NCBI GenBank assembly: GCA_016182235.1
Contig: JACOXT010000003.1
Location: 451,488 to 515,487, forward strand
DNA: 64,000 nucleotides
Origin: Candidatus Levyibacteriota bacterium
GTDB taxonomy: Bacteria > Patescibacteriota > Microgenomatia > Levybacterales > UBA12049
Reading direction: 5' to 3'
This document shows, in pieces, positions 1,796 to 61,957 of this stretch. The position numbers and the translations under genes are program-made. How positions within the stretch are numbered: the first letter of the stretch is position 1; each line of letters opens with the position of its first letter. Under the pieces are notes generated by a model. That model had not been told where the DNA came from and ran no database searches. It was given only the letters and a program-made list of their open reading frames with translations.

Positions 1796-2362
1796 ATGAA
1801 GATTGGCATAGATATATCTCAAATTGCATATGAAGGGACTGGAGTTGCGCGATACTTAAGGTCTCTGGTTGAAGAGCTCCTGAGAATTGATAAAAAGAAC
1901 GAGTATGTCCTTTTTTTCTCAAGCCTCAGAAGAAAAATTCCCTCCTTCGCCAAGGCTGCCTCCTTCGCCGAAGTGGCTACGAAGGCCGAGTCGGCGGGCA
2001 AGAGAAATTCCAAAATAAAGGCTTTTAGATTTCCCCCTTCTTTGTTAGATTTACTCTGGAATAGGCTGCATATTTTGCCGGTCGAGTGGCTAATTGGAGA
2101 TGTTGATATTTTTATTACTTCCGACTGGACGGAGCCTCCTGTACTTCGAGCAAAAAAGGCAACAATTCTATACGACCTTATTGTTTATAAATATCCTCAA
2201 GAAACAGATAAACATATTGTCGAGGTTCAAAAGCGAAAATTAGAATGGGCTAAAAAAGAATCAGATTTAATTTTTTGCATATCAGAGGCCACAAAGAAAG
2301 ATGCCATGGAAATCTTAGACGTTGAAGAGGAACGATTAAAGGTTATATTGCCGGGAGTGTGA
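1796..2362 (+). CDS. truncated GT4 glycosyltransferase, N-terminal Rossmann domain only (possible gene remnant)
   Basis: 188 aa. Starts MKIGIDISQ..GTGVARY like a GT4 N-domain and stops just after ...ILPGV, the position where the downstream GT4 has TYPGV. Lacks the C-terminal EX7E/nucleotide-sugar domain. Contains the GC-rich in-frame insertion at 1934-2011. Confidence 0.5.
   Translation: MKIGIDISQIAYEGTGVARYLRSLVEELLRIDKKNEYVLFFSSLRRKIPSFAKAASFAEVATKAESAGKRNSKIKAFRFPPSLLDLLWNRLHILPVEWLIGDVDIFITSDWTEPPVLRAKKATILYDLIVYKYPQETDKHIVEVQKRKLEWAKKESDLIFCISEATKKDAMEILDVEEERLKVILPGV
1934..2011. repeat. GC-rich ~60-bp in-frame insertion flanked by AAATTCC direct repeats inside the GT4 fragment
   Basis: agAAAAATTCC[ctccttcgccaaggctgcctccttcgccgaagtggctacgaaggccgagtcggcgggcaag]AGAAATTCCaaaat. 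The core contains palindromic CTTCGCCGAAG. Confidence 0.6.
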
Positions 2363-3564
2363 TTATGACTATTGGGATCAATGGATACGAAGCTGTAATG
2401 CCGAGGTTTGGATATGATTTTGAAACAAAACTGCCAAGAAGGGTCGGCAGCGGTGAATATTGTTTTGAACTCCTACTATATCTTAACAAAATTGATAAGA
2501 AAAACAAATATATAATATTTCTTCCCAAAACTCCAACAATGGATTTACCTAGGCAATCAGATAGCTGGCGATATAGGATTGTTGGGCCAAAGCGCTTTTG
2601 GACGATTTTTGGGTTATCAATGGAATTTTTGCTTAGGCGGTCTAAGGTAGACGTATTTTTCTCCCCAACTCATTATTTGCCTTTTTTTTTGCCAGTAAAA
2701 TCCGCTGTTTCTGTTTTAGATGTTTCCTTTATTCATTTTCCTAAGCTTTTTAAAAAGAAAGATCTGTATCAGCTTAAGAGTTGGACAGCTTATTCGGTAA
2801 GGAAAGCATCAAAAGTGTTAACGATTAGCCTGGCGTCAAAAGATGATATAATTAAGACATACAATGTTTCGAAGGAAAAGGTGATAGTTACATATCCCGG
2901 AGTAAAATCCGAAATTCAAATATCGAAATTCGAAACAAATGCAAAATTCAAAATGCAAAATTCAAAATTTCTTAAAGATAAGTACGGGGCTGAAGGGAAT
3001 TATATTTTGTTTGTGGGGACATTACAGCCCAGAAAAAATATAGTCCGTCTTATCGAGGCCTTTAGCCATATTTCTTCTTCTTTAATCATTAATCCTGCCT
3101 CGCCGGCAGGCAGGCCTTTATCGTTAATCATTGTGGGTAAAAAGGGTTGGTTATATGAGGAAATTTTGGAGACTCCCAAAAAGCTTAATATTGAGACGAA
3201 AGTAAAGTTTTTAGAAAATATTTCAGATGAAGATTTGCCTTATTTTTATAAAAACGCTTTATGTTTTGTTTTACCTAGCCTATATGAAGGGTTTGGCCTG
3301 CCAATTTTGGAAGCAATGAGATATGGGTGTCCGGTTATCACAAGTAATATCTCCTCGCTTCCCGAGGCAGGAGGAGACGCGGCTCTATACGTAGATCCTC
3401 TCAATGTAGACGATATTGCCAAAAAATTGGAATTAGTAATTAATAATGAAGATTTAAGGAAAAAACTTATAAAAAAAGGTTACGAACAAGTTAGGAAATT
3501 CAGTTGGGAGAAAACAGCAAGAGAAACATTAAGGGTATTGGAAGGTGTAGTAAATAATGAGTAG
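2359..3564 (+). CDS. GT4-family glycosyltransferase
   Basis: 401 aa with the C-terminal GT4 signature EGFGLPILEAMRYGCPVITS. Carries two in-frame mini-insertions (2905-2972 and 3082-3132). Confidence 0.85.
   Translation: MIMTIGINGYEAVMPRFGYDFETKLPRRVGSGEYCFELLLYLNKIDKKNKYIIFLPKTPTMDLPRQSDSWRYRIVGPKRFWTIFGLSMEFLLRRSKVDVFFSPTHYLPFFLPVKSAVSVLDVSFIHFPKLFKKKDLYQLKSWTAYSVRKASKVLTISLASKDDIIKTYNVSKEKVIVTYPGVKSEIQISKFETNAKFKMQNSKFLKDKYGAEGNYILFVGTLQPRKNIVRLIEAFSHISSSLIINPASPAGRPLSLIIVGKKGWLYEEILETPKKLNIETKVKFLENISDEDLPYFYKNALCFVLPSLYEGFGLPILEAMRYGCPVITSNISSLPEAGGDAALYVDPLNVDDIAKKLELVINNEDLRKKLIKKGYEQVRKFSWEKTARETLRVLEGVVNNE
2905..2972. repeat. AT-rich in-frame insertion with GAAATTC/AAAATTC tandem units in GT4
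   Basis: tccGAAATTCaaatatcGAAATTCgaaacaaatgcAAAATTCaaaatgcAAAATTCaaaatttc encodes SEIQISKFETNAKFKMQNSKF. Confidence 0.6.
3082..3132. repeat. GC-rich hairpin mini-insertion with perfect 9-bp direct repeat (TTAATCATT) inside GT4 CDS
   Basis: TTAATCATTaatCCTGCCtcgccGGCAGGcaggcctttatcgTTAATCATT. Repeat-to-repeat distance is 42 nt (14 codons), so it is in frame. Confidence 0.7.
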
Positions 3565-4127: not shown

Positions 4128-5018
4128 GTGATAGAACTCTCTATAATTATTCTTTCTTATAATACCAAAGATTTAACGCGTCGATGCATCCAATCAGTAA
4201 GAAAGCAATATAAAAAAGAACTGATAGACAAAAAATTGGAAATTATAGTTATTGACAATAATTCATCCGATGATTCTGCATCTTTATTGTCAGATCTTAA
4301 AAAAGAAATACTCGCCTCGCGGCGAAGCGGGTCAAATTTTACACTAATTCAAAATAGAGAAAATTTAGGATTTGCTAAAGGTTGCAATTTCGGCGCTAAA
4401 AACGCTAAAGGAAAATATCTTCTTTTTCTAAATTCTGATACTACAGTTCTAGATAGGGGATTTTTACGGATGACAGAATTTTTAGATAATCACAAAGAAG
4501 CTGGTATTTTGGGTGGAAGACTTCTGAATCCAAATGGTACTCCCCAACGATCGGGTGGAAAGTTTTATAACCTATGGTACCTTTTTTTAATGCTTTTAGG
4601 GTTGGAGGTGTTAGTAAGAAGATCACCTACTAAGATAGATAAGATTGATTGGGTAAGTGGGGCTTGCTTGATGATAGGAAAGAATCAATTCAATAATCTA
4701 TCTGGTTTTGATGAACATTTTTTCATGTACATAGAAGACATGGAATTATGCTATAGGATGAGAAAACTTGGTTTTTCAACTTATTTTTATCCTTTTGTTG
4801 GGATTGAGCATAAAACCCTAGGTAGCAGCAACAGATCATTTGCTATAATTAATATTTATAAGGGAATTCTCTATTTTTATTCAAAACACAAAAATCATCT
4901 AGAGTATTTAGTTGCCAAAACATTGCTTATCTCAAAAGCAGAAATTTTAATTTTGGTAGGATTTTTGACATTTAGCTCTGGGCTAAGGGATAGATACAGA
5001 AAGGCGGTAATGTTTTAA
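4128..5018 (+). CDS. GT2-family glycosyltransferase
   Basis: N-terminal IIILSYNTKD and VIDNNSSDDS with a DXD-like FLNSDT. Contains a GC-palindrome insertion at 4311-4332. Confidence 0.8.
   Translation: MIELSIIILSYNTKDLTRRCIQSVRKQYKKELIDKKLEIIVIDNNSSDDSASLLSDLKKEILASRRSGSNFTLIQNRENLGFAKGCNFGAKNAKGKYLLFLNSDTTVLDRGFLRMTEFLDNHKEAGILGGRLLNPNGTPQRSGGKFYNLWYLFLMLLGLEVLVRRSPTKIDKIDWVSGACLMIGKNQFNNLSGFDEHFFMYIEDMELCYRMRKLGFSTYFYPFVGIEHKTLGSSNRSFAIINIYKGILYFYSKHKNHLEYLVAKTLLISKAEILILVGFLTFSSGLRDRYRKAVMF
4311..4332. repeat. GC-rich palindromic core CTCGCCTCGCGGCGAAGCGGGT inside GT2 CDS
   Basis: Same core family as the copies at 29026-29047 and (reverse complement) 45518-45538. Confidence 0.6.
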
Positions 5019-8237: not shown

Positions 8238-9719
8238 ATGAGGAAGTTTGAGATTTTTGCGTTGGCAGTTATTCTTATTGGGGCGTTTACAGTTAGGTTA
8301 TATAGGTTCGACTGGCCGGTTGCGGATTGGCACAGTTGGCGTCAGACTGACACATCGGCAGTTTCCCGAAATTTTGTAAGAGAAGGTTTCGACATATTCC
8401 GTCCCAAATTTGATGATTTATCTTCCGGTGTTTCTTTAATCGATAACCCAGAAGGTTACAGGTTTGTTGAATTTCCTATCTATAATGTGTTTCAAGCCAT
8501 TCTTTATCAGCAAATCGGTAAATTTACACTTGAGGAATGGGGAAGAGTAGTAACTATCTTTTCTTCCCTAATTTCGATAGTTTTTCTTTACCTTCTAGTT
8601 GCAAAGTACACGAATTCTCGCACCGGACTTTTGGCTTCTTTTTTCTTTGCTCTCATTCCATATAATATTTTTTATGGTCGCACCATTCTTCCCGATCAAT
8701 CTATGGTTGCATCACTTCTTGCAGGAACATACTTTTTTTCAAATTGGATGGAAAATAAAGACTTCAAATTTTCGATTTTCAATCTTCAATTTTTTCTAGC
8801 TGTCTTACTTATGGCGATGGCTTTACTTTTGAAGCCTTACGCTTTGTTTTTTACTTTGCCTTTGGTTTATCTTGCATGGAGTCGTTTTGGCTTTGGCTTT
8901 TTAAAAAAATGGCAGCTTTGGGCTTATTTTATTCTGGCAATTTTGCCTTTGATCTTGTGGCATATATGGATGAGTCAAAGGGAGTTTATTCAAGGAATTC
9001 CGCGTAATGATTGGTTATTTAATGGTAACGGCATTAGATTTAAAGGAGCATTTTTTCATTGGCTTTTTGGAGACAGAATAGGTCGTCTTATCTTGGGATA
9101 CTGGGGATTGCCTTTTGTTGTTTTGGGAATCATAAGGAAAATCAATAGAAAAGAAAATTGGTTTTTTTATTTTTTTATAGTTTCCTCTCTTGCCTATATG
9201 ACAATTTTAGCAACAGGAAATATCCAGCACGATTATTATCAAATTCTTATTGTTCCAACCCTTTCAATTTTTCTTGCAAAGGGTGTAGACCTTATACTTA
9301 GCAGTAAAGAATTTTTTAACCGGTCAGTTTCTTATATAATAATTGCTGGTGGAATTATTTTTATGTTAGCCTTCGGTTGGTTTGGGGTCAGGGATTATTA
9401 CAGCATTCAGCACCCGAACCTTATAGCTGCGGGACTCGCAGTTGACGAGCTTACTCCGAAAGATGTAAAAATTATTGCGCCCTATGGCGGGGATACAACC
9501 TTGTTATACCATACCAATCGAAAAGGCTGGCCGGTTTTTGACAGATCTTTTAAGGATTTTAAGAAAGCAGGAGCATCTTATATTGCCTTTGCTGATCCAA
9601 CGCCAGAGGAACTAAATTTAGAAACGTTATTCGAGCCTGTAATTATCACCCCTCAATACGCAATATTTGATCTTACAAAACCCACTCTGCAAGGCTTAAG
9701 AGAACAGAAAAAAGATTAA
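8238..9719 (+). CDS. GT39/GT83-like (ArnT/PMT-type) membrane glycosyltransferase
   Basis: N-terminus RLYRFDWPVADWHSWRQTDTSAVSRNF is the typical PMT_2/ArnT-like signature. Has about 11 TM helices. Contains a heptamer tract at 8763-8795. Confidence 0.7.
   Translation: MRKFEIFALAVILIGAFTVRLYRFDWPVADWHSWRQTDTSAVSRNFVREGFDIFRPKFDDLSSGVSLIDNPEGYRFVEFPIYNVFQAILYQQIGKFTLEEWGRVVTIFSSLISIVFLYLLVAKYTNSRTGLLASFFFALIPYNIFYGRTILPDQSMVASLLAGTYFFSNWMENKDFKFSIFNLQFFLAVLLMAMALLLKPYALFFTLPLVYLAWSRFGFGFLKKWQLWAYFILAILPLILWHIWMSQREFIQGIPRNDWLFNGNGIRFKGAFFHWLFGDRIGRLILGYWGLPFVVLGIIRKINRKENWFFYFFIVSSLAYMTILATGNIQHDYYQILIVPTLSIFLAKGVDLILSSKEFFNRSVSYIIIAGGIIFMLAFGWFGVRDYYSIQHPNLIAAGLAVDELTPKDVKIIAPYGGDTTLLYHTNRKGWPVFDRSFKDFKKAGASYIAFADPTPEELNLETLFEPVIITPQYAIFDLTKPTLQGLREQKKD
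8763..8795. repeat. TTCAATT/TTCGATT heptamer tract inside GT39-like CDS (encodes FKFSIFNLQFF)
   Basis: ttcaaattttcgattttcaatcttcaatttttt. Related to the ileS AATTTTC tract. Confidence 0.6.
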
Positions 9720-11879: not shown

Positions 11880-13033
11880 AAATTGGTATTGACGCAAGAC
11901 TTTGGAACGAAGGAGGGGTAGGAAGATACATAAGAAATCTAATTAAGCAAATTCAGCCTTTAGATAAAAGTAATCTTTATACTTTGTTTGTTTTGTCTAA
12001 AGACTATGAAAGTATTAAGTACGAAGTATCAAGTATTAAGGAGGAAAATTGGGAACTTATAAAGACAAATATTCGGTGGCATTCGATTGAGGAGCAGTTA
12101 AAGTTTGCTAACATTTTAAACAAAGAAGAATTAGATTTGGTGCATTTTCCCTATATTTCGGTGCCGTTGAATTATCAAAAGCCATTTATCATTACAATAC
12201 ACGATTTAATTCCATATCATTATCCTTCTTCAAATGCTTCCGCTCTCCCTTTCCCTATTTACTTCTTAAAATTATTGGCATATAAATTTGTGGTGAGAGC
12301 CGCAGCAAGAAAAGCGCAAAAAATTATCGCGCCCTCAAATTTTACAAAAAAGGAAATTGTAGAACATCTAAAAATTGATCCAAGAAAAGTAATAGTAACT
12401 TACGAAGGAGTAAATAGTAAAATTACAAATTCAAAATCTCAAATTCCAAAAAAATCCCAAAATACTAAATACAAAATACTAAATACAAAATACTTTTTAT
12501 ATGTAGGAAACGCGTTTCCGCATAAGAATCTTGAGGTATTGATAGAAGCTTTCAATCTTTTCCGTCAAGAGCATCCTGGTATTTTTCTTGTCTTTGTCGG
12601 CAAGGAGGATTTCTTCTACAGTCGATTAAAAAATGAGGTTTACAAGCGTAAAATTTCAGACGTAGTTTTTTTACATAATATAATTGATGGGCAATTAGTA
12701 AGTTTGTACAGAAGCGCAATTGCATTTGTTTCACCTTCTCTTATGGAAGGATTTGGTCTGCCGGTTCTTGAGGCAATGGTAAATAGATGTTTGGTTTTGG
12801 CATCGGATATTCCAACACATCGAGAAATTTGTGGCAAGGTTGCCTTATACTTTGATCCTAATAATGTTGGGGATCTAACTCAAAAACTAGAATCCATTCA
12901 CTCTAATGATATGTATTATTATAGTGAAAAAAAAAGGGGGTTTGATCGAGCGAAAGTGTTCTCTTGGGAAAAGATGGCAAGAGAAACTTTAAAAATATAT
13001 GAAAGTTGCGTTGGTTTACGACAGAGTGAATAA
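11876..13033 (+). CDS. GT4-family glycosyltransferase
   Basis: C-terminal EGFGLPVLEAM. Contains the AT-rich in-frame insertion at 12418-12493. Confidence 0.8.
   Translation: MKIGIDARLWNEGGVGRYIRNLIKQIQPLDKSNLYTLFVLSKDYESIKYEVSSIKEENWELIKTNIRWHSIEEQLKFANILNKEELDLVHFPYISVPLNYQKPFIITIHDLIPYHYPSSNASALPFPIYFLKLLAYKFVVRAAARKAQKIIAPSNFTKKEIVEHLKIDPRKVIVTYEGVNSKITNSKSQIPKKSQNTKYKILNTKYFLYVGNAFPHKNLEVLIEAFNLFRQEHPGIFLVFVGKEDFFYSRLKNEVYKRKISDVVFLHNIIDGQLVSLYRSAIAFVSPSLMEGFGLPVLEAMVNRCLVLASDIPTHREICGKVALYFDPNNVGDLTQKLESIHSNDMYYYSEKKRGFDRAKVFSWEKMARETLKIYESCVGLRQSE
12418..12493. repeat. AT-rich ~70-bp in-frame insertion (A/C/T heptamer-like tracts) in GT4, homologous to the murE copy at 29515-29585
   Basis: aaaattacaaattcaaaatctcaaattccaaaaaaatcccaaaat... 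encodes KITNSKSQIPKKSQNTKYKILNTKY. The murE copy is aaaattccaaactcaaaatctcaaattacaaataaatccaaaatt. Confidence 0.65.
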
Positions 13034-27910: not shown

Positions 27911-28486
27911 ATGGCTGGGAGGACGCATGATTTGGGTGCTTTTACTGCGCTAACTTATACGGTGGCTACGCAGCCCCTACACGAGATGACGCTTGCGACA
28001 GCGATCGTTGCCTTTTTGGCTAACATGGTTGGAGGGTTGGCGCCTGATATTGACCAGCCAACCGGAAATTTGTGGAACAGAGTTCGGGGAGGAAGGTTGG
28101 TTAGCAGACTTGTTACTCCTCTTCTTGGAGGACATCGTTTTATCTCACATTCGTTATTAGGCATATTACTATTTGGGTTCGTTGTGAGTAAACTTCTAGA
28201 TACTGTGAGTTCAGTTCTACTCGTTGATATGAATATTGTTTGGTGGGCTTTTATGATAGGATTTGTGTCTCACCTAATGCTAGATACACTTAGTCGAGAA
28301 GGAGTTCCATGGCTATTTCCGATTCCAATTCGTATCGGAATTCCTCCATTTCGGTTTCTCCGTATAAAAACCGGTGGTATAGTCGAAAAATCATTTGCCT
28401 TTCCCATGCTTTTGATTGCAAATATTTATATGTATTATATCCACTACCCCAAATTTATGGACTTCTTACGGCACTACATAAAGTAG
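27911..28486 (+). CDS. membrane-bound metal-dependent hydrolase, DUF457/YdjM-like
   Basis: 191 aa, GC-rich compared with its neighbours. Has His-rich TM helices. The family assignment is from memory. Confidence 0.5.
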   Translation: MAGRTHDLGAFTALTYTVATQPLHEMTLATAIVAFLANMVGGLAPDIDQPTGNLWNRVRGGRLVSRLVTPLLGGHRFISHSLLGILLFGFVVSKLLDTVSSVLLVDMNIVWWAFMIGFVSHLMLDTLSREGVPWLFPIPIRIGIPPFRFLRIKTGGIVEKSFAFPMLLIANIYMYYIHYPKFMDFLRHYIK

Positions 28487-28518
28487 AGAAGAGGTTAAGA
28501 AAAGGGTATAATGGGGAC

Positions 28519-29757
28519 ATGCTACAGAGAATTAAGAATATTTATCACCTTGGAAATGGCATTCTGGGTAATTTGCGGTTTGGGTTTCCATCACATAAGC
28601 TTACTGTAATAGGCGTTACCGGAACTGATGGTAAAACAACAACTACAAGTCTAATATACCATGTCCTTTCTACATCTGGACGAAATGCATCGATGATAAG
28701 CTCAGTTGGGGCAGTAATAGGAGGAAGAGAGTATGATGTGGGATTTCATGTTACAACTCCTTCTTCCTGGGCGCTTCAGAAGTTTATTAAAGAGGCAGAA
28801 AAGGGCTTTCTGGTTCTTGAGACGACGTCTCATGCCTTGGATCAATTTAGAGTTTGGGGAATAAAATTTGACATTGGAGTTTTAACCAATATCACCCATG
28901 AACACCTAGATTACCACAAGACTTACCATAAATACGTTGAGGCAAAAGCAAAGCTTCTTGAAATGAGCCGAGTAGCGATTGTGAATAGAGACGACAAATC
29001 ATACCCGTTAATAAATTCGAAATTCGCTCGCCTCGCTGCGAAGCGGGAAATTCGAAATTCGAAATTAATTACCTATGGGATGAAAGATAATGCGGATTTA
29101 AATCCAAAAAAATTTCCATTTAAAACAAATATGATTGGAGAGTTCAATATTTACAACAGTCTTGCCGCAATAGCGGTATGTAGAGCTCTTGGTATTCCAG
29201 ATGAAGATATTAGAACGGGTTTAAAGTCATTTAAGCCTCCGATTGGCAGAGAAGAAGTAGTTTATAAGAAAGATTTTACCGTTATGATTGATTTTGCACA
29301 TACACCTAACGCCTTTGAGGAAATTCTGAGTTCAATTAAACCGAGTATAAAAGGCAGACTTATTCACGTATTTGGGTCGGCGGGACTTAGAGACAATACC
29401 AAAAGACCAATTATGGGGAGAGTCTCATCAAAATATGCGGATATTATTGTTTTGACCTCTGAAGATCCAAGATCGGAATCGGTTGAGAAGATTTCAGACG
29501 AGATAGAATCAGGAATAAAAATTCCAAACTCAAAATCTCAAATTACAAATAAATCCAAAATTCAAATATATAAAATTCCAAATCGACAAGAAGCAATTCA
29601 ATTTGCTATTAAGATTGCTAGAAAAGGAGATTTGGTCTTGACAACGGGGAAATCGCACGAAAAATCAATGAATTATGGACATGGAGAAGTTCCGTGGGAC
29701 GAGTACAGCGCTGTACGAAAAGCATTAAAAGGTTTGGGATTAAAGATTAAGGATTAA
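28519..29757 (+). CDS. murE: UDP-N-acetylmuramoyl-tripeptide ligase (MurE-type Mur ligase)
   Basis: P-loop VIGVTGTDGKTTT and a C-terminus GDLVLTTGKSHEKSMNYG resembling MurE GKGHE. Start set at ATG 28519 (MLQRIKN). Carries two in-frame mini-insertions (29014-29066 and 29515-29585). Confidence 0.75.
   Translation: MLQRIKNIYHLGNGILGNLRFGFPSHKLTVIGVTGTDGKTTTTSLIYHVLSTSGRNASMISSVGAVIGGREYDVGFHVTTPSSWALQKFIKEAEKGFLVLETTSHALDQFRVWGIKFDIGVLTNITHEHLDYHKTYHKYVEAKAKLLEMSRVAIVNRDDKSYPLINSKFARLAAKREIRNSKLITYGMKDNADLNPKKFPFKTNMIGEFNIYNSLAAIAVCRALGIPDEDIRTGLKSFKPPIGREEVVYKKDFTVMIDFAHTPNAFEEILSSIKPSIKGRLIHVFGSAGLRDNTKRPIMGRVSSKYADIIVLTSEDPRSESVEKISDEIESGIKIPNSKSQITNKSKIQIYKIPNRQEAIQFAIKIARKGDLVLTTGKSHEKSMNYGHGEVPWDEYSAVRKALKGLGLKIKD
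29014..29066. repeat. mini-insertion in murE: GAAATTC heptamer duplications flanking GC palindrome GCTCGCCTCGCTGCGAAGCGGG
   Basis: aaattcGAAATTC[gctcgcctcgctgcgaagcggg]GAAATTCGAAATTCGAAATT. In frame. Confidence 0.7.
29515..29585. repeat. AT-rich in-frame insertion in murE, homologous (~85% over ~50 nt, same reading frame) to 12418-12493
   Basis: Encodes KIPNSKSQITNKSKIQIYKIPNRQ. The tail tccaaaattcaaatata matches tccgaaattcaaatatc of the copy at 2905-2972. Confidence 0.65.
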
Positions 29758-41264: not shown

Positions 41265-41420
41265 ATGGGTAAAAGTAAAAAAATTATTGTAAAAGGAAGC
41301 AAAATCGGTATCATCTTACATATTGGGGATAATGATTTTATCTCTCTAACCGATATGGCAAAATATAAAACTTACTGGTTTGGGGACTGGTTTGGGGACG
41401 GTCCTCGGAGGTGTTGTTAA
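41265..41420 (+). CDS. 51-aa ORF resembling a KilA-N/Bro-N-like N-terminal fragment (possible mobile-element remnant)
   Basis: MGKSKKIIVKGSKIGIILHIGDNDFISLTDMAKYK... The 3-prime end overlaps the TTTGGGGAC repeat motif. The assignment is weak. Confidence 0.2.
   Translation: MGKSKKIIVKGSKIGIILHIGDNDFISLTDMAKYKTYWFGDWFGDGPRRCC
41378..41410. repeat. GGTTTGGGGAC x2 + GGTCCTCGGAG motif (copy 1 of 3)
   Basis: ggtttggggactggtttggggacggtcctcggag. Confidence 0.6.
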
Positions 41421-45006: not shown

Positions 45007-46143
45007 ATGAAAGTTGTAGTAATAGGAGGCCATTTATCTCCAGCGTTATCCGTAATCGAAGCGCTGCCAAAAGAGGTAAGTATATTATTTGTTGGAAGAA
45101 AATATTCTTTTGAGGGAGATAAGTCAAAATCTTTGGAATACGAGACCATTAATTCTCTTAAGTTTCCTTTTGCTGAGATTACTACAGCAAGGTGGCAAAG
45201 AAAGTTTACAAGACACACTATTAATTCGCTCTTTAAATTTCCTATTGGAGTTATTCAGTCGTTATTTATTTTATTAAGATTTAAGCCAGATGTTGTTGTT
45301 GGATTTGGAGGGTATGTGTCTCTGCCAGTTGCTATATCTTCTTTTATCCTAAGAGTTCCCGTTGTAATTCACGAGCAGACTTTGGAGGCAGGTTTTTCAA
45401 ATAGAATAATTTCGGTATGGGCTTCTAAGATATGTATATCATGGGAGTCATCACGCTCATTTTTTCCAAAAGAAAAAACGGTATTGACAGGAAACCCGAT
45501 ACGGAAGTTCGAAGTTCCCGCTTCGCAGAGAGGCGAGCGAAGTATGAAGTATGAAGTTGATAAGAAGGTTCCTACAATTTATATAACCGGTGGAAGTTCG
45601 GGATCGCATTTTATCAACAAATTAGTCGAAGGTTGTATTGGGGAACTGCTGAGAAAATTCAACATAATCCATCAGATTGGAGAGTCAAAATTTGGCGATT
45701 TTGAACGCTTAGTAAAGCTTCGTGAGACATTTTCTTTTGATCAACGCAAAAGATATATTTTAAAAAAATTTGTTAAACCGTCCCAAGTTGCCTCAATTTT
45801 AAAATATTGCGATTTAGCTATATCACGTTCGGGTATAAATACAATAACAGAACTTATTTATTTTGAAAAACCAGCTATTCTAATACCCCTCCCATTTTCT
45901 CAAAATAACGAACAATTGAAAAACGCAAGATTTTTGGAGACGTTCAAATTAGGAAAAGTATTGTCTCAAAACGAAGCTGACTCAAGAAGCTTATCTCAAA
46001 TGGTAGACTTAATATTTGATAATATAAAAGAGCATAAGTTAAATGAGAGCGAATCAGCGAAGAGGCAAATAGAAAATGCGGCTCAAAATATAGTTAAGAT
46101 TGTTGAATATGTCGGTGAAACAAAGAAAGTCCCGAAATTATAG
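45007..46143 (+). CDS. murG: undecaprenyldiphospho-muramoylpentapeptide beta-N-acetylglucosaminyltransferase
   Basis: N-terminal VIGGHLSPALSV and a GT28 C-terminal domain. Carries the GC-palindrome insertion at 45504-45558. Confidence 0.8.
   Translation: MKVVVIGGHLSPALSVIEALPKEVSILFVGRKYSFEGDKSKSLEYETINSLKFPFAEITTARWQRKFTRHTINSLFKFPIGVIQSLFILLRFKPDVVVGFGGYVSLPVAISSFILRVPVVIHEQTLEAGFSNRIISVWASKICISWESSRSFFPKEKTVLTGNPIRKFEVPASQRGERSMKYEVDKKVPTIYITGGSSGSHFINKLVEGCIGELLRKFNIIHQIGESKFGDFERLVKLRETFSFDQRKRYILKKFVKPSQVASILKYCDLAISRSGINTITELIYFEKPAILIPLPFSQNNEQLKNARFLETFKLGKVLSQNEADSRSLSQMVDLIFDNIKEHKLNESESAKRQIENAAQNIVKIVEYVGETKKVPKL
45504..45558. repeat. mini-insertion in murG: GAAGTTC/GAAGTAT heptamer duplications flanking GC palindrome CCGCTTCGCAGAGAGGCGAGC (reverse orientation of the murE core)
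   Basis: GAAGTTCGAAGTTC[ccgcttcgcagagaggcgagc]GAAGTATGAAGTATGAAGTT. In frame. Confidence 0.7.
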
Positions 46144-53169: not shown

Positions 53170-56097
53170 ATGTTCGAAGTTGTAGATCCAAAATTAAATT
53201 TCCCCAAGCTCGAAGAGGACCTTCTTAAAATGTGGTACAAAGAGGGAATTGTGAAAAAATATCTTCAAAAAAATAATTCTTCCAAGAAGAAATTTTCTTT
53301 TCTTGATGGGCCAATAACTGCTAACAATCCCATGGGTGTTCACCATGCCTGGGGAAGAACTTACAAAGATCTCTGGCAAAGATTTTGGAACATGAGAGGC
53401 TATAAGCAAAGATTCCAGAATGGATTTGATGAACAAGGGCTTTGGGTCGAGGTAGAAGTTGAAAAAGAATTGGGTTTGAAGAATAAGAAAGATATTGAAA
53501 ATTTAATTCCGGGCAATAAGTTTGCAAGTCTTGAGAAATTTATAAATCTTTGTAAAGAAAGAGTAAGAAAATTTTCTAAGATTCAAACCGAACAAAGCAA
53601 GAGGCTTGGATATTTTATGGACTGGGACAACTCTTATCATACCTCTTCGGATCGAAATAACTACACAATCTGGAATTTCTTAAAAATCGTCAATGAAAAA
53701 GGCTGGCTTTACAAGGGACGAGACAGTGTGCCGTGGTGCCCAAGATGCGGGACTGCAATTTCTCAACATGAAATTTTGACTGAGGAATACAAAGAACTTA
53801 CTCATAAAACAGTCGTTTTTAAACTTACAATTAAAGGGAGAAACAAAGAATATTTACTTGCTTGGACTACAACGCCCTGGACAATTCCGGGAAATGTCGC
53901 GCTTGCAGTTGACAATAATCTATCGTATTGGAAGATGGAAAACGCCAAAGGCGAGAAAATAATTATTGTTAATCCGACAGCAAATGGTGATCTTAATAAG
54001 GAAGCTATGCTTGTTAATAGGCTAGGATTAATAGAAGGTTATGTAAAAGTAGAGGAACTTAAGGGAAAAGATCTTGTAGGACTTGGATACGAGGCGCCTT
54101 ATGATAGTTTGCCTTCTGTTAAAAAAACCCTTGGGAATTATACGCATCGGGTAGTTGCAACTGATCCCCAAGTATTACCGATTAATCCAGCTGAGGGTAC
54201 TGGAATTGTCCATATTGCTCCTGGCGCGGGCGCGGAAGATTTTAAGCTTAGCAAGAAAGAAAAAATACCTGCAATTGAGGAAATTGACGAAAGTGGTGTA
54301 TTTATAGACGGATTTGATTTTATGTCTGGAAAGCATGTTAAAAAAGCAATGCCTCAGATTTTGGAGGACCTTGAAAAACGTAACTTTGCTTTTAAAATTT
54401 TTGACTATATGCATCGCTATCCTACATGCTGGAGGTGTAAAACTGAGTTAGTCTGGAGAGTAGTTGATGAATGGTATATAGCAATGGATAAAGCATTAAA
54501 GTCAAAAGTCAAAAGTCAAAAGTCAAAAGTTGAAGAAAATAAAACATATAGAGAACAGATGATTGAGGTAGCTAAGAAGATTAACTGGATACCTAAATGG
54601 GGATTAGATAGGGAACTTGATTGGCTTTCCAACATGCACGATTGGCTTATAAGCAAAAAGCGTTTTTGGGGACTGGCATTACCAATTTGGGAATGCAAAG
54701 AGTGCGGAAGTTTTGAGGTGATTGGCGGACGGGAGGAGCTTAAAGTTCGAGCATTTAGCGGTTGGAAGGAGTTCGATGGAAATAGCCCCCATAGACCATG
54801 GATTGATCAAATAAAAATAAAATGCAAAAATTGTAGATCAATAATGTCACGAATACCTGATGTTGGAAACCCATGGCTTGATGCAGGTATTGTTCCTTTC
54901 TCAACATTGCCCGCTGGTTGGTTTCCAGCAGATTTTATTACTGAAAGTTTTCCAGGGCAATTTAAAAATTGGTTTTACTCTCTTATTGCAATGGCAACAG
55001 CTATTAAAAATGAACCTCCTTTTAAAACAGTTTTGGGGTTTGCTTCAGTTCGAGACGAAAAAGGAGAGGAAATGCATAAATCAAAAGGAAATGCTATTGA
55101 ATTCAATGAAGCCGCAGGCAAGATTGGGGGAGACGTCATGAGGTGGCTTTACACGACTCAAAAGCCTGAACTCAATCTTAATTTTGGTTATGGACCCGCA
55201 ACAGACGTAAAAAGAAGATTCTATTTAATACTTTGGAACAGTTATAAATTTTTTGTTGACTACGCAAAAGCTTCTTCATGGGAATGTGGAAGAAATGTTA
55301 AAGATTTAACAATACTAGATAAATGGATTCTGGCAAGATTAACAGAAGTAGTTTTCTTGGTAAATGAATCTTTAGAAAGATTCGATGCAAGTCGCGCCTC
55401 TTTCGCAATAGAGGAATTTGTAGTGAAAGATTTTTCTACATGGTACATAAGAAGATCTCGAGACAGGGTTTCGCCAATTTCAGACGCAAATGACAGAAAT
55501 ACTTGTTTTTCAGTTATGTACGGAGTCTTGGTTACGCTTTCCAAATTACTTGCTCCTTTTACGCCATTTATTGCTGAGGAAATATTTAGAAATTTGGCAA
55601 ATGAAGAATCAGTACATTTACAAAGTTATCCGAAGGGCGACAAGTCGCTATTGAATAGAAATCTTATTGAGGATATGAAGAAAGTAAGGGAAGTTGTCGA
55701 AGCTGGACACGCAAAACGAAAAGAAATTGGGATAAGAGTAAGACAACCGCTACCCAAATTTTCAATTTTCAATTTTCAATTTTCAATTGAAGAGAAGCTA
55801 ATAGATCTTATTAGGGATGAGTTAAATGTTAAAAATGTTATTTTCAAGATGAGAAAAGGACCGTTTTCTGTGGAGTTCGATACGGAGATTACAAACGATC
55901 TTAAAAATGAAGGTGAGGCAAGAGAAATAGTTAGAAGAATTCAGCAGGAACGAAAAATTATAGGTACGACATTGAATGAGAGGGTAAATGTCACTTTGGA
56001 GAGTTGGCCGGCTTCATATAGCAATTACATTAAAAGAAATGCGTTAGTTGGAAGTCTCAAAAAAGGAGACGAATTTTCGGTCGCAAGGCAGAAATGA
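53170..56097 (+). CDS. ileS: isoleucyl-tRNA synthetase, type 2 (eukaryote/archaeal-like)
   Basis: FLDGPITANNPMGVHHAWGRTYKDL..GFDEQGLWVE matches the type-2 IleRS N-terminus. KMSKS-like HKSKGN present. Carries in-frame repeat tracts at 54498-54531 and 55757-55789. Confidence 0.85.
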   Translation: MFEVVDPKLNFPKLEEDLLKMWYKEGIVKKYLQKNNSSKKKFSFLDGPITANNPMGVHHAWGRTYKDLWQRFWNMRGYKQRFQNGFDEQGLWVEVEVEKELGLKNKKDIENLIPGNKFASLEKFINLCKERVRKFSKIQTEQSKRLGYFMDWDNSYHTSSDRNNYTIWNFLKIVNEKGWLYKGRDSVPWCPRCGTAISQHEILTEEYKELTHKTVVFKLTIKGRNKEYLLAWTTTPWTIPGNVALAVDNNLSYWKMENAKGEKIIIVNPTANGDLNKEAMLVNRLGLIEGYVKVEELKGKDLVGLGYEAPYDSLPSVKKTLGNYTHRVVATDPQVLPINPAEGTGIVHIAPGAGAEDFKLSKKEKIPAIEEIDESGVFIDGFDFMSGKHVKKAMPQILEDLEKRNFAFKIFDYMHRYPTCWRCKTELVWRVVDEWYIAMDKALKSKVKSQKSKVEENKTYREQMIEVAKKINWIPKWGLDRELDWLSNMHDWLISKKRFWGLALPIWECKECGSFEVIGGREELKVRAFSGWKEFDGNSPHRPWIDQIKIKCKNCRSIMSRIPDVGNPWLDAGIVPFSTLPAGWFPADFITESFPGQFKNWFYSLIAMATAIKNEPPFKTVLGFASVRDEKGEEMHKSKGNAIEFNEAAGKIGGDVMRWLYTTQKPELNLNFGYGPATDVKRRFYLILWNSYKFFVDYAKASSWECGRNVKDLTILDKWILARLTEVVFLVNESLERFDASRASFAIEEFVVKDFSTWYIRRSRDRVSPISDANDRNTCFSVMYGVLVTLSKLLAPFTPFIAEEIFRNLANEESVHLQSYPKGDKSLLNRNLIEDMKKVREVVEAGHAKRKEIGIRVRQPLPKFSIFNFQFSIEEKLIDLIRDELNVKNVIFKMRKGPFSVEFDTEITNDLKNEGEAREIVRRIQQERKIIGTTLNERVNVTLESWPASYSNYIKRNALVGSLKKGDEFSVARQK
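54498..54531. repeat. (AAAGTC)x5 hexamer tandem repeat inside ileS (encodes KSKVKSQKSKV)
   Basis: Seen directly: aaagtcaaaagtcaaaagtcaaaagtcaaaagt. Confidence 0.8.
55757..55789. repeat. (AATTTTC)x4.7 heptamer tandem repeat inside ileS (encodes KFSIFNFQFSI)
   Basis: Seen directly: aattttcaattttcaattttcaattttcaattg. Confidence 0.8.
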
Positions 56098-60651: not shown

Positions 60652-60693
60652 TGGGGACCATTTTGGGGACCATTTTGGGGATGGTCCTCAGAG
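60652..60693. repeat. GGGGACCATTTT x2 + GGGGATGGTCCTCAGAG motif (copy 3 of 3), 57 nt upstream of the minus-strand DmpA-family gene
   Basis: tggggaccattttggggaccattttggggatggtcctcagag. GGACCAT and ATGGTCC can pair as a 7-bp hairpin. Confidence 0.6.
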
Positions 60694-60898: not shown

Positions 60899-61957
60899 AT
60901 GAATGTTTTATTTTTATCTCGCTTATTTTATCCCCATATTGGAGGTGTCGAGAAGCACGTTTTGGAAATAAGTAAGATTTTGGTTGAAAAAGGACACAAA
61001 ATAACAATTATTACAGAACAATACTCAAGAGACCTTCCGAAAGAAGAAGATTTTAACGGAATTAGAGTATTAAGAATATTTACAGGACAAGACGATTGGT
61101 TTAAGAAATTTAGAATCTGGAAAGAATTGTTTAAATTAAAAAAACTAATCAGAAATGCTAGCATAGTCCATTGTCACGATGTGTTTTTTTGGTACTTCCC
61201 ATTTCTTTTTTTATACCCCAAGAAAAAAGTATATGTGACATTTCATGGGTATGAAGATTACCCGATTCCCAAAAAGGCGGTATTGGTAAGAAGACTCTCT
61301 GAAAAATTATCTAAGGGAAATATATGTATTGGAGACTTTATGAAAAAATGGTATGGAACAGAACCAACATTTGTGACATACGGAGGGGTTGACAAATATC
61401 AAATATCAAACATTAAATATCAAAAAGATGAGAGATTAAAAGATCCAAATTCTGCAGTCTTTGTTGGCAGATTGGATGAGCAGACAGGAATAAAAACTTA
61501 TTTGAAAGCTTTTAAGATGATAAAGAAGAAAATTAAAAATTTTAAATTATTGGTGGTAGGAGACGGTAAATTCAAAAAACATATTGTTAAAAATGTTCGA
61601 GGAGTAGGTTTTCAGTTGAACCCAGAAAAATATATTAGAGAATACCGATTTGCATTTGTTTCTCGCTATCTATCAATTCTTGAAGCCTTTGTCTCAAAAA
61701 GACTAGTCTTTGCCGTTTACGATAACCCTTTGAAGGAAGATTATCTTAAAATGTCTCCATTTGCGAAATATATAATTGTTGCCAGAAATTCAAAAAAACT
61801 TTCGGACGCAGTTTTTTACTTTTTAAACAATCCGAATGAAGAGAAAAAAATGCTAAACAAAGCGTATAATTGGGTTAATAAGCAGACATGGGAAAAAGTG
61901 ACAGACACATATTTGAATCTTTGGGGTTTCAAGACAGAAAATATAATTTTTCCTTGA
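60899..61957 (+). CDS. GT4-like glycosyltransferase
   Basis: N-terminus MNVLFLSRLFYPHIGGVEKHVLEISKIL has the GT4 N-domain pattern. Carries the AAATATC heptamer tract at 61394-61421. Confidence 0.6.
   Translation: MNVLFLSRLFYPHIGGVEKHVLEISKILVEKGHKITIITEQYSRDLPKEEDFNGIRVLRIFTGQDDWFKKFRIWKELFKLKKLIRNASIVHCHDVFFWYFPFLFLYPKKKVYVTFHGYEDYPIPKKAVLVRRLSEKLSKGNICIGDFMKKWYGTEPTFVTYGGVDKYQISNIKYQKDERLKDPNSAVFVGRLDEQTGIKTYLKAFKMIKKKIKNFKLLVVGDGKFKKHIVKNVRGVGFQLNPEKYIREYRFAFVSRYLSILEAFVSKRLVFAVYDNPLKEDYLKMSPFAKYIIVARNSKKLSDAVFYFLNNPNEEKKMLNKAYNWVNKQTWEKVTDTYLNLWGFKTENIIFP
61394..61421. repeat. (AAATATC) heptamer tandem tract inside GT4-like CDS (encodes KYQISNIKYQ)
   Basis: aaatatcaaatatcaaacattaaatatc. 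Confidence 0.7.

Follow-up and report, generated by a model that had tools for sequence, protein, structure and literature searches.

The 64,000-nt stretch of DNA analysed here (the window; contig JACOXT010000003.1, positions 451,488 to 515,487) comes from Candidatus Levybacteria (Microgenomates, candidate phyla radiation) and has a GC content of 33–39%, a range that starts at the background of about 33% assumed in an earlier sequence-only reading. Short GC-rich palindromic inserts are present in its genes for a Mur ligase (murE), GT28/MurG (murG), and glycosyltransferases of the GT2 and GT4 families. These host genes, as well as the sequence at 29014–29066 in murE, are as that reading gave them, and the encoded MurE is 100% identical to a Levybacteria protein in the NCBI and Logan data. 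The insert studied here, the family-1 core (CTCGCCTC[G/T]C[G/T]GCGAAGCGGG), is found three times, in murE, the GT2 gene and murG (Table 1), where no copy is expected by chance: the pattern used to search the window, CTCGCCTCNCNGCGAAGCGGG, was matched in none of 100 dinucleotide shuffles. A family of at least five copies had been proposed. Three do belong to one family, while the other two, hairpins at 3082–3132 and 1934–2011, are related GC-rich inserts but distinct elements, the first containing a second family and the second a composite akin to a third.

Table 1. Palindromic inserts and associated heptamer arrays in the window.
Feature	Position	Strand	Host or context	Remarks
Family-1 core CTCGCCTCGCTGCGAAGCGGG, 21-bp imperfect palindrome	29027..29047	+	murE	ARLAAKR; one-base boundary ambiguity; absent from orthologue P0084/L201
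Left part of pre-existing heptamer array, AAATTCG ×2	29013..29026	+	murE	Target, not duplication; uninterrupted array ATAAATTCGAAATTCGAAATTCGAAATTCGAAATTA in L201/L202
Right part of the same array, AAATTCG ×2 + AAATTA	29048..29067	+	murE	Read from window sequence
Family-1 core CTCGCCTCGCGGCGAAGCGGG	4311..4331	+	GT2 glycosyltransferase ORF 4128–5018	LASRRSG; absent from 39 orthologues
Family-1 core CTCGCCTCTCTGCGAAGCGGG	45517..45537	-	murG ORF 45007–46143	PASQRGE; one mismatch to the core of the sequence-only reading
Heptamer array GAAGTTC ×2 ... GAAGTAT ×2, GAAGTT, interrupted by the murG core	45504..45558	+	murG	Relative P0298 has heptamer-type KFEIRNSKL at the loop
Family-2 21-nt palindrome CCTGCCTCGCCGGCAGGCAGG	3094..3114	+	GT4 ORF 2359–3564	PASPAGR; distinct from family 1
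GC-rich composite resembling family 3; contains an 18-nt internal duplication and small nested palindromes	1941..2002	+	ORF 1796–2362	AAAATTC-type context

All window copies lie inside long open reading frames (ORFs), in frame and free of stop codons, as had been described. The three genes read the core in different frames and orientations, resulting in the peptides ARLAAKR, LASRRSG and PASQRGE. Since three unlike peptides derive from one core, the conserved entity is the DNA and not the peptide, and no constraint is seen at the peptide level. ARLAAKR is absent from MurE relatives, both in an alignment of 25 Levybacteria proteins and in the DNA of the locus. An exact 7-residue gap takes the place of LASRRSG in 39 of 39 GT2 orthologues, and PASQRGE is missing from all 21 MurG relatives. 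The orthologue alignments that the sequence-only reading had called for therefore give no sign of an ancestral loop, and its view of a repeated mini-insertion tolerated in housekeeping genes is borne out: the inserts are in frame, in variable loops and absent from orthologues. In an AlphaFold2 model of MurE (mean predicted local distance difference test score, pLDDT, of 80), ARLAAKR corresponds to residues 170–176, at the end of a predicted helix (residues 162–174) and in the coil preceding a strand (182–186). In MurG, the insert falls in a variable linker that joins the N and C domains of GT28.

The murE site allows filled and empty alleles to be compared, using loop DNA taken from 80 metagenomic orthologues. 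The loop, between VNRDD.S and ITYG, is in most lineages a tandem array of a 7-nt unit that is lineage-specific (AAATTCA, AAAGTCA, AAACTCA, AAATCCG, TCAAATC, ATTTCTA and others), with arrays in about 50 orthologues. The DNA of orthologue P0084 (64% protein identity; loci L201 and L202) reads ...ATAAATTCGAAATTCG^AAATTCGAAATTCGAAATTA... and has no core. The window murE consists of the identical 35 nt, an array of (AAATTCG)×4.7, plus exactly 21 bp at the position marked ^. As the 35-nt array is uninterrupted in L201 and L202, the heptamers pre-exist and were not duplicated by the insertion. A second set of alleles shows the same relationship. The murE genes of L131, L135, L137 and L141 read ...AATTTCTAATTT^CAAATTTCTAATTTC... 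and are core-free, while that of L155 carries the core CTCGCCTCGCGGCGAAGCGGG at ^, that is, in the same loop but in a different heptamer array. A different, 42-bp (2 × 21) nested GC palindrome occupies this same ^ in L134. The insertion points are TTC^GAA in the murE and murG arrays of the window, and AATTT^C^AAATT in L155 and L134, each at a dyad centre or loop. The murE loop was filled independently by the same core in two lineages. The comparison of empty and filled sites also sets the inserted unit at exactly 21 bp (7 codons), rather than the 22 bp originally suggested. Counts of GC-rich k-mers across the orthologous murE loci returned conserved coding words only and were uninformative.

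GTDB species representatives (one genome per species) were scanned with a pattern in which 19 of the 21 bases are specified. At least 120 loci were obtained, which together with the window contain 131 cores; statements below on copies outside the window refer to these listed loci. Repetition beyond chance, as the sequence-only reading had expected, is found in the window, and the same 21-mer is scattered across many uncultured bacteria. The cores are nearly uniform, CTCGCCTCGC[T/G]GCGAAGCGGG, a uniformity that is partly built in by the search pattern. The arms CTCGCCTCGC and GCGAAGCGGG surround a central T or G and are complementary at 8 of 10 positions. The two non-Watson-Crick stem positions, T2.G20 and C6xA16, make the two strands of the core distinguishable; both were invariant in a re-scan allowing two mismatches, and both are fixed by the scan pattern (19/21 positions). 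Open stretches of at least 150 codons contain 56% of the cores, compared to 79% of random positions in the same loci; the core is both genic and intergenic, and mildly depleted from genes. Decayed copies are scarce: none with 2–4 mismatches was found in 404 kb of unselected Levybacteria loci, and the two-mismatch re-scan of 868 kb recovered about 6 degenerate versus about 11 additional intact copies.

Nested copies offer another view of insertion. The family-2 palindrome stands alone in L005, L022, L071 and L088, and elsewhere family-2 elements host nested family-1 cores and form the flanks of many copies, for example cctgcctcgccgg–core–caggcagg. Deleting the core from the nested forms leaves an intact family-2 21-mer, and these copies are nested insertions without duplication.

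These data bear on the proposal of the sequence-only reading that the core is a miniature inverted-repeat transposable element (MITE)-like, cut-and-paste element, with its 7-bp target duplicated and the flanking heptamers (GAAATTC in murE) representing target-site duplications, perhaps from repeated insertion and excision. Tandem 7-mers do flank the copies in murE and murG, flank identity among the listed copies peaks at k = 7, and the 10-nt arms look like a fused pair of terminal inverted repeats. However, orthologues have uninterrupted arrays with the same number of units (L201 for the window; L131, L135, L137 and L141 for L155), the gain in GT2 is exactly 7 residues, and removal of the core from nested copies restores the 21-nt host. 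Identical 7-mers on both sides are present in 6 of 127 copies, all within pre-existing heptamer arrays, leaving 121 without a 7-bp direct repeat. Furthermore, period-7 arrays are common in the window without any core, and no partner transposase was found in the flanks of the listed loci; although the core arms are inverted repeats, the 868 kb of flanks contain neither a transposase nor a longer element with such ends. A target-duplicating element is, therefore, very improbable. Cycles of insertion and excision that build heptamer arrays through 7-bp duplications were rejected on the basis of the empty sites and the flank statistics.

The heptamer arrays instead appear, from these alleles, to be a separate and older microsatellite feature that provides landing sites and is not a product of insertion. 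Tandem Repeats Finder shows that period 7 dominates the tandem repeats of the window, all of them in coding regions. Most arrays comprise about 4.4–5 units, and one about 10; additions of units must come in threes, and we infer that copy numbers cluster as frame preservation allows. Where lineages share a unit, their arrays hardly differ although the murE DNA is no more than 70–79% identical, which indicates concerted evolution or constraint. Other period-7 arrays of the window are located at 2904–2969, 8767–8793, 12010–12040, 12420–12494, 54498–54530, 55757–55788 and 61393–61424, with units including AAAATTC, AAGTATT, AAATACT, AAAGTCA, AATTTTC and CAAATAT. Most of those checked are inside long ORFs, two of them in a class-I aminoacyl-tRNA synthetase ORF (53170–56097). 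Perfect 12-nt tandem repeats at 41374–41399 and 60652–60681 (ACTGGTTTGGGG ×2.2 and TGGGGACCATTT ×2.5) are unlike the heptamer arrays. Heptanucleotide microsatellites are over-represented in many bacterial genomes, for which polymerase slippage has been proposed, according to the account of Mrazek et al. (2007) given in PMC4692102. As described there for bacterial heptanucleotide microsatellites, and as for the cyanobacterial STRR heptamers, period-7 arrays here far exceed those of other periods. Unlike those microsatellites, the arrays of the window are in coding loops, have copy numbers that keep the frame (about 4.5–5, and about 10) and are landing sites for palindromes.

Target preference was assessed by deleting the core, rejoining the flanks and scoring how well the arms pair at, or up to 2 nt from, the junction, in comparison with random positions. 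At least 6 of 8 positions are complementary at 32% of core sites versus 5.6% of random positions (about 6-fold), and all 8 at 5.5% versus 0.1%. A period-7 array surrounds 7 of 127 core sites compared to 5 of 2540 random positions (about 28-fold). Insertion is thus biased towards palindromes and heptamer arrays. The sequence logo of the flanks is weak (63% of the copies have G at −1, and 61% have C at +1), and the flank consensus is C(C/T)(T/G)G, not GTAG.

The listed matches are dispersed across lineages. By deposited label, they are mostly from Patescibacteria (Levy-, Roizman-, Curtiss-, Davies-, Gottesman-, Falkow-, Taylor-, Kerfeld-, Wildermuth- and Berkel-bacteria, and Saccharibacteria), with several metagenome-assembled genomes (MAGs) of Bacteroidota and a few of Omnitrophota, Elusimicrobiota, Planctomycetota, Nitrospirota and WOR-1. 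Cyanobacterial records are absent from the at least 120 loci listed. The Bacteroidota case is genuine, since the core of L025 shares its 8-kb locus with an LptD_2 outer-membrane gene (E = 1.8e-176). The label 'uncultured Gammaproteobacteria', under which many of the MAGs were deposited, was rejected as evidence of phylum breadth, as the RpoB of L027 is closest to those of Levybacteria, Dojkabacteria and Microgenomates. This locus (CAYIRD010000018.1), which carries the 21-bp core inside rpoC (..VRIDSPRGEAGGKIIE..), and other 'binchicken' MAG loci with the same label look like Patescibacteria.

Because the listed matches are from MAGs or metagenomes, with the exception of a variant in the isolate Agreia sp. 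Leaf210, and because none is from cultured plasmids or phages, an artefact of metagenome assembly or sequencing has to be considered. The Agreia match (L046) has 2 mismatches to the consensus in a 67% GC context, and is plausibly due to chance. However, the insert-bearing proteins P0001 and P0391 recur in independent NCBI and Logan assemblies, cores are present in the long-read, complete chromosomes OY970292.1 and CP181398.1, and the P0039 cluster with SPRGEAG has 8 members. Copies always preserve the frame and are located in variable loops, and the host lineages are uncultured, which explains their absence from isolate collections. An artefact is exceedingly unlikely.

Two further explanations were weighed. 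One is a local mutational by-product, in which template switching, quasi-palindrome correction or slippage creates GC hairpins de novo at each site, in keeping with the slippage-prone arrays and palindromes at which cores are found. The same 21-mer, with identical asymmetric mismatches, is shared by more than 130 unrelated sites from many lineages. Events confined to each site could not arrive at a single sequence unrelated to its flanks, so this origin is contradicted and almost certainly wrong. The other is a DNA or RNA motif selected by the host (a protein-binding, recombination, uptake or replication signal) and spread by its usefulness. The near-invariance of the core, including its stem mismatches, the small number of decayed copies, and the conservation of heptamer arrays beyond that of the surrounding gene would all fit such a signal. 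Nevertheless, the core is sparse and unevenly spread (3 copies in the 64 kb of the window versus 1 in about 340 kb from other Levybacteria loci), its positions are non-orthologous between lineages, and it is found in any frame and orientation, in unrelated genes and between genes. The uniformity is also partly imposed by the exact-match scan. An Rfam search returned one tRNA in the window, chance-level miRNA matches at the murE site, and no family for the core. Overall, we consider a host-selected motif unlikely.

A different question is whether the inserts are translated. In programmed translational bypassing, which the sequence-only reading had put forward as a second hypothesis, ribosomes would hop over the GC hairpin, as in the byps of Magnusiomyces or in T4 gene 60, leaving the insert untranslated. 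A GC-rich hairpin in an AT-rich host is present, and the flanking repeats could supply matching take-off and landing codons. However, Magnusiomyces inserts break frames and involve an unused A-site codon (PMC5009743). The core, by direct reading of its sequence, is free of stop codons in all six frames, and the insert is always 21 nt and keeps the frame. All codons of the four window inserts are used elsewhere in the genes of the window, the rarest being CGG (1.8 per 1000). Thus, neither a frame break, nor a stop, nor an unused codon is found. The 74 genic copies (listed loci plus window) are spread over the six frame and orientation classes as 15/9/14/13/8/15 (chi-square about 3.9, 5 degrees of freedom, not significant), and about 44% of the listed copies are outside long ORFs. 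In murE, a hop to the first TTC downstream would bring the ribosome to a TAA stop codon. Bypassing, therefore, has very little chance of being correct, and ordinary decoding would suffice, with the inserts likely translated as 7 extra residues.

Other inserts were noted in the murE genes and at the sister elements. A second hot-spot loop of MurE, after FIKKA, contains much longer in-frame GC-rich inserts in L155 and L142, and also in L149 and L128. Among these after-FIKKA inserts of Levybacteria MurE, one forms an imperfect palindrome about 150 nt long, similar to a Rickettsia palindromic element or a MITE, and another forms a nested palindrome about 50 nt long. This loop varies between 14 and 76 residues, with a GC content of 0.27–0.41 in loops of up to 23 residues versus 0.44–0.62 in five long versions; that of the window has 14 residues and a GC content of 0.48. 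Near the 3' end of the window murE, an A-rich repeat tract (29519–29583; period about 16/32), encoding KIPNSKSQITNKSKIQIYKIP, matches another length-variable loop of the orthologues. The longest murE ORF begins at 28309; orthologues and the database protein P0001 begin at the ATG at 28519, and the 70-codon N-terminal extension (28309–28518) is probably not translated.

The ends of the composite insert match an element in L117, CCTCCTTCGCCGAGGCTTCGGCGGGCAGG, which is itself inside an (AAAATTC)n array. The ORF that carries this composite matches the N-terminal GT4 domain only and abuts the full-length GT4 gene, and may represent a split or truncated gene. In L047 (1380–1445) and L115 (about 4250–4300), tandem and nested cores, together with a 24-nt loop variant CTCGCCTCGATTCGGCGAAGCGGG, are located in a 484-codon Saccharibacteria ORF and give a repeated SEASPLR peptide. 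The motif GCGAAGC, the sequence of an unusually stable DNA mini-hairpin, is present in the 3' half of the core and in the murE-loop insert of L142 (CCTGCGAAGCAGG).

Taken together, these observations suggest that the core is probably a selfish, non-autonomous and very small mobile palindrome, apparently among the smallest mobile DNA elements. A 21-bp, strand-asymmetric imperfect palindrome would be copied or moved in trans and pasted precisely, without target-site duplication. It prefers sites with hairpin potential, namely short palindromes (at their centre or loop), the centres of elements of the same class, giving rise to nested palindromes, and slippage-prone period-7 arrays, whose units often form TTCGAA-type dyads. 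Being 7 codons long and open in all six frames, the core leaves the frame of any coding region that it enters unbroken. Copies in surface loops or linkers of essential proteins (MurE, MurG, RpoC and glycosyltransferases) would, therefore, survive and be translated as 7 residues.

The activity responsible is likely trans-acting and structure-specific, operating on single-stranded or extruded hairpin DNA, given the precise and duplication-free insertion, the preference for hairpin loops and arrays, the nesting, and the conserved, strand-asymmetric mismatched hairpin. The core may act as a structured single strand because T2.G20 and C6xA16 are unchanged in the re-scan, which is a weak test of mismatch conservation. 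Candidate enzymes for such a substrate would be HUH/Y1-like or otherwise hairpin-recognising proteins that act on single-stranded DNA, and insertion would follow the same principle as HUH/Y1 'peel and paste' transposition and the repetitive extragenic palindrome (REP)/RAYT system. Mobility would be current or recent, because few decayed copies are found.

Several points weigh against a mobile element. The scarcity of decayed copies could reflect selection for a function at the DNA level. Deposited taxon labels are unreliable, as exemplified by the 'Gammaproteobacteria' MAG that is really Microgenomates-like, and a scan demanding 19 exact bases, with at least 120 loci, biases both uniformity and taxon breadth. 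Neither the plasmids of PLSDB, nor the phages of INPHARED, nor the viral contigs of IMG/VR contain a true match, for which reason a plasmid or phage vehicle was rejected, and the core has so far been seen only in MAGs. No near-identical strain was found for a presence/absence comparison (the best MurE relative is 72% identical), so that movement is inferred from phylogenetically scattered, precise insertions. A clear palindrome is seen at only about one third of the sites, indicating that the target rule is a preference and not a law. An exceptional hairpin was rejected, as predicted stability is unremarkable (z between −0.8 and −2.2) and the DNA folds only modestly better than shuffles. Finally, neither a transposase nor any other gene recurs beside the copies in their 8-kb neighbourhoods. 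In an all-against-all BLASTP comparison of 2462 ORFs from 120 core-bearing loci, the top shared neighbour family was present in 9 of the 120, and a linked transposase was rejected.

A broader proposal is possible but doubtful: the 21-mer, families 2 and 3, and the 42-bp nested forms might all be substrates of an undescribed, structure-specific machinery, which would recognise a mismatched single-stranded DNA hairpin, paste it without duplication into a hairpin loop or slipped heptamer array, and be shared horizontally between Patescibacteria and Bacteroidota of the same habitat. That insertion machinery might also create or sustain the period-7 arrays. If this is true, the 21-mers and their sister families would be the smallest transposable units known and would represent a new transposition mechanism. 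Patescibacteria genomes have fewer than about 1000 genes; thus, the mobilising enzyme should be identifiable by phylogenetic profiling, and the tiny gene repertoires make the search for it tractable.

For these ultra-small, genome-reduced bacteria, a mobile palindrome would mean that MurE, MurG and RpoC are remodelled by 7-residue inserts from a near-harmless DNA parasite. Such inserts would be a route to loop and linker variation, and would confound gene calling, alignment and phylogenomics of proteins from the candidate phyla radiation. Identical 21-mers common to Patescibacteria and Bacteroidota MAGs could mark DNA exchange or shared mobile agents. A text search of the literature with two core half-sites retrieved only unrelated primers and viral sequences, and in the literature searched, no paper connects MITEs or palindromic elements with the candidate phyla radiation.

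Among known systems, MITEs leave target-site duplications, and none is seen in murE (two lineages), GT2 or the nested copies. Rickettsia palindromic elements are about 150 bp long, encode a conserved peptide in one frame and are confined to Rickettsia, as summarised from Ogata et al. (2000) in PMC10969869. The core is similarly palindromic, selfish DNA in frame in unrelated housekeeping genes of a reduced genome, with a fold-compatible peptide. Unlike these elements, it is 21 bp long, uses all six frames, giving six different peptides, and is also intergenic. REPs are extragenic and species-specific, have a conserved 5' GTAG and flank a RAYT gene (PMC3116915). Like REPs (20–40 nt) and REPINs, the core is a short, imperfect, GC-rich palindrome that is dispersed, non-autonomous, without target-site duplication and probably recognised as a single-strand hairpin. 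In contrast to them, 56% of the listed copies are genic, there is no GTAG flank, the same sequence is found across phyla, and the 8-kb neighbourhoods contain no linked gene. The core is not classed as a REP, since it is not confined to extragenic sites and lacks both the 5' GTAG and a linked RAYT. The mobile GC clusters, or byps, of Magnusiomyces capitatus mitochondria (PMC5009743) are also short GC-rich hairpin inserts in coding genes of an AT-rich genome, but they break the frame and are skipped by the ribosome, whereas the core keeps the frame.

The closest known kind appears to be the small dispersed repeats (SDRs) SDR4, SDR5 and SDR6 of Nostocaceae. In 2008, Elhai et al. reportedly described SDRs as 20–27 nt long, nesting in one another and associated with tandem heptameric repeats. 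The core is itself enriched at heptamer arrays. SDRs are presented as short, dispersed, hairpin-forming repeats that are thought to be mobile in the statements of the papers citing them (PMC4390886, PMC5861425, PMC3116915 and PMC2884548), and, in the account of PMC5861425, as reported in Nostocaceae only. The core resembles them in being very short (21 bp), dispersed (more than 130 copies), palindromic and nested. It also shares with them precise insertion into palindromes, SDR5 being inserted between nucleotides 3 and 4 of the HIP1 palindrome GCGATCGC as PMC4390886 describes it. Unlike SDRs, its hosts are Patescibacteria and Bacteroidota, and it is exactly 7 codons long, open in six frames and often in essential genes; its sequence family also appears to differ from SDR4/5/6. 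The class of very small mobile palindromes would thereby be extended from Nostoc-type cyanobacteria (2008) to Patescibacteria and Bacteroidota. The core is, thus, most suitably placed among the very small mobile palindromes, a known kind with an unsolved mechanism, as a new family found in new phyla.

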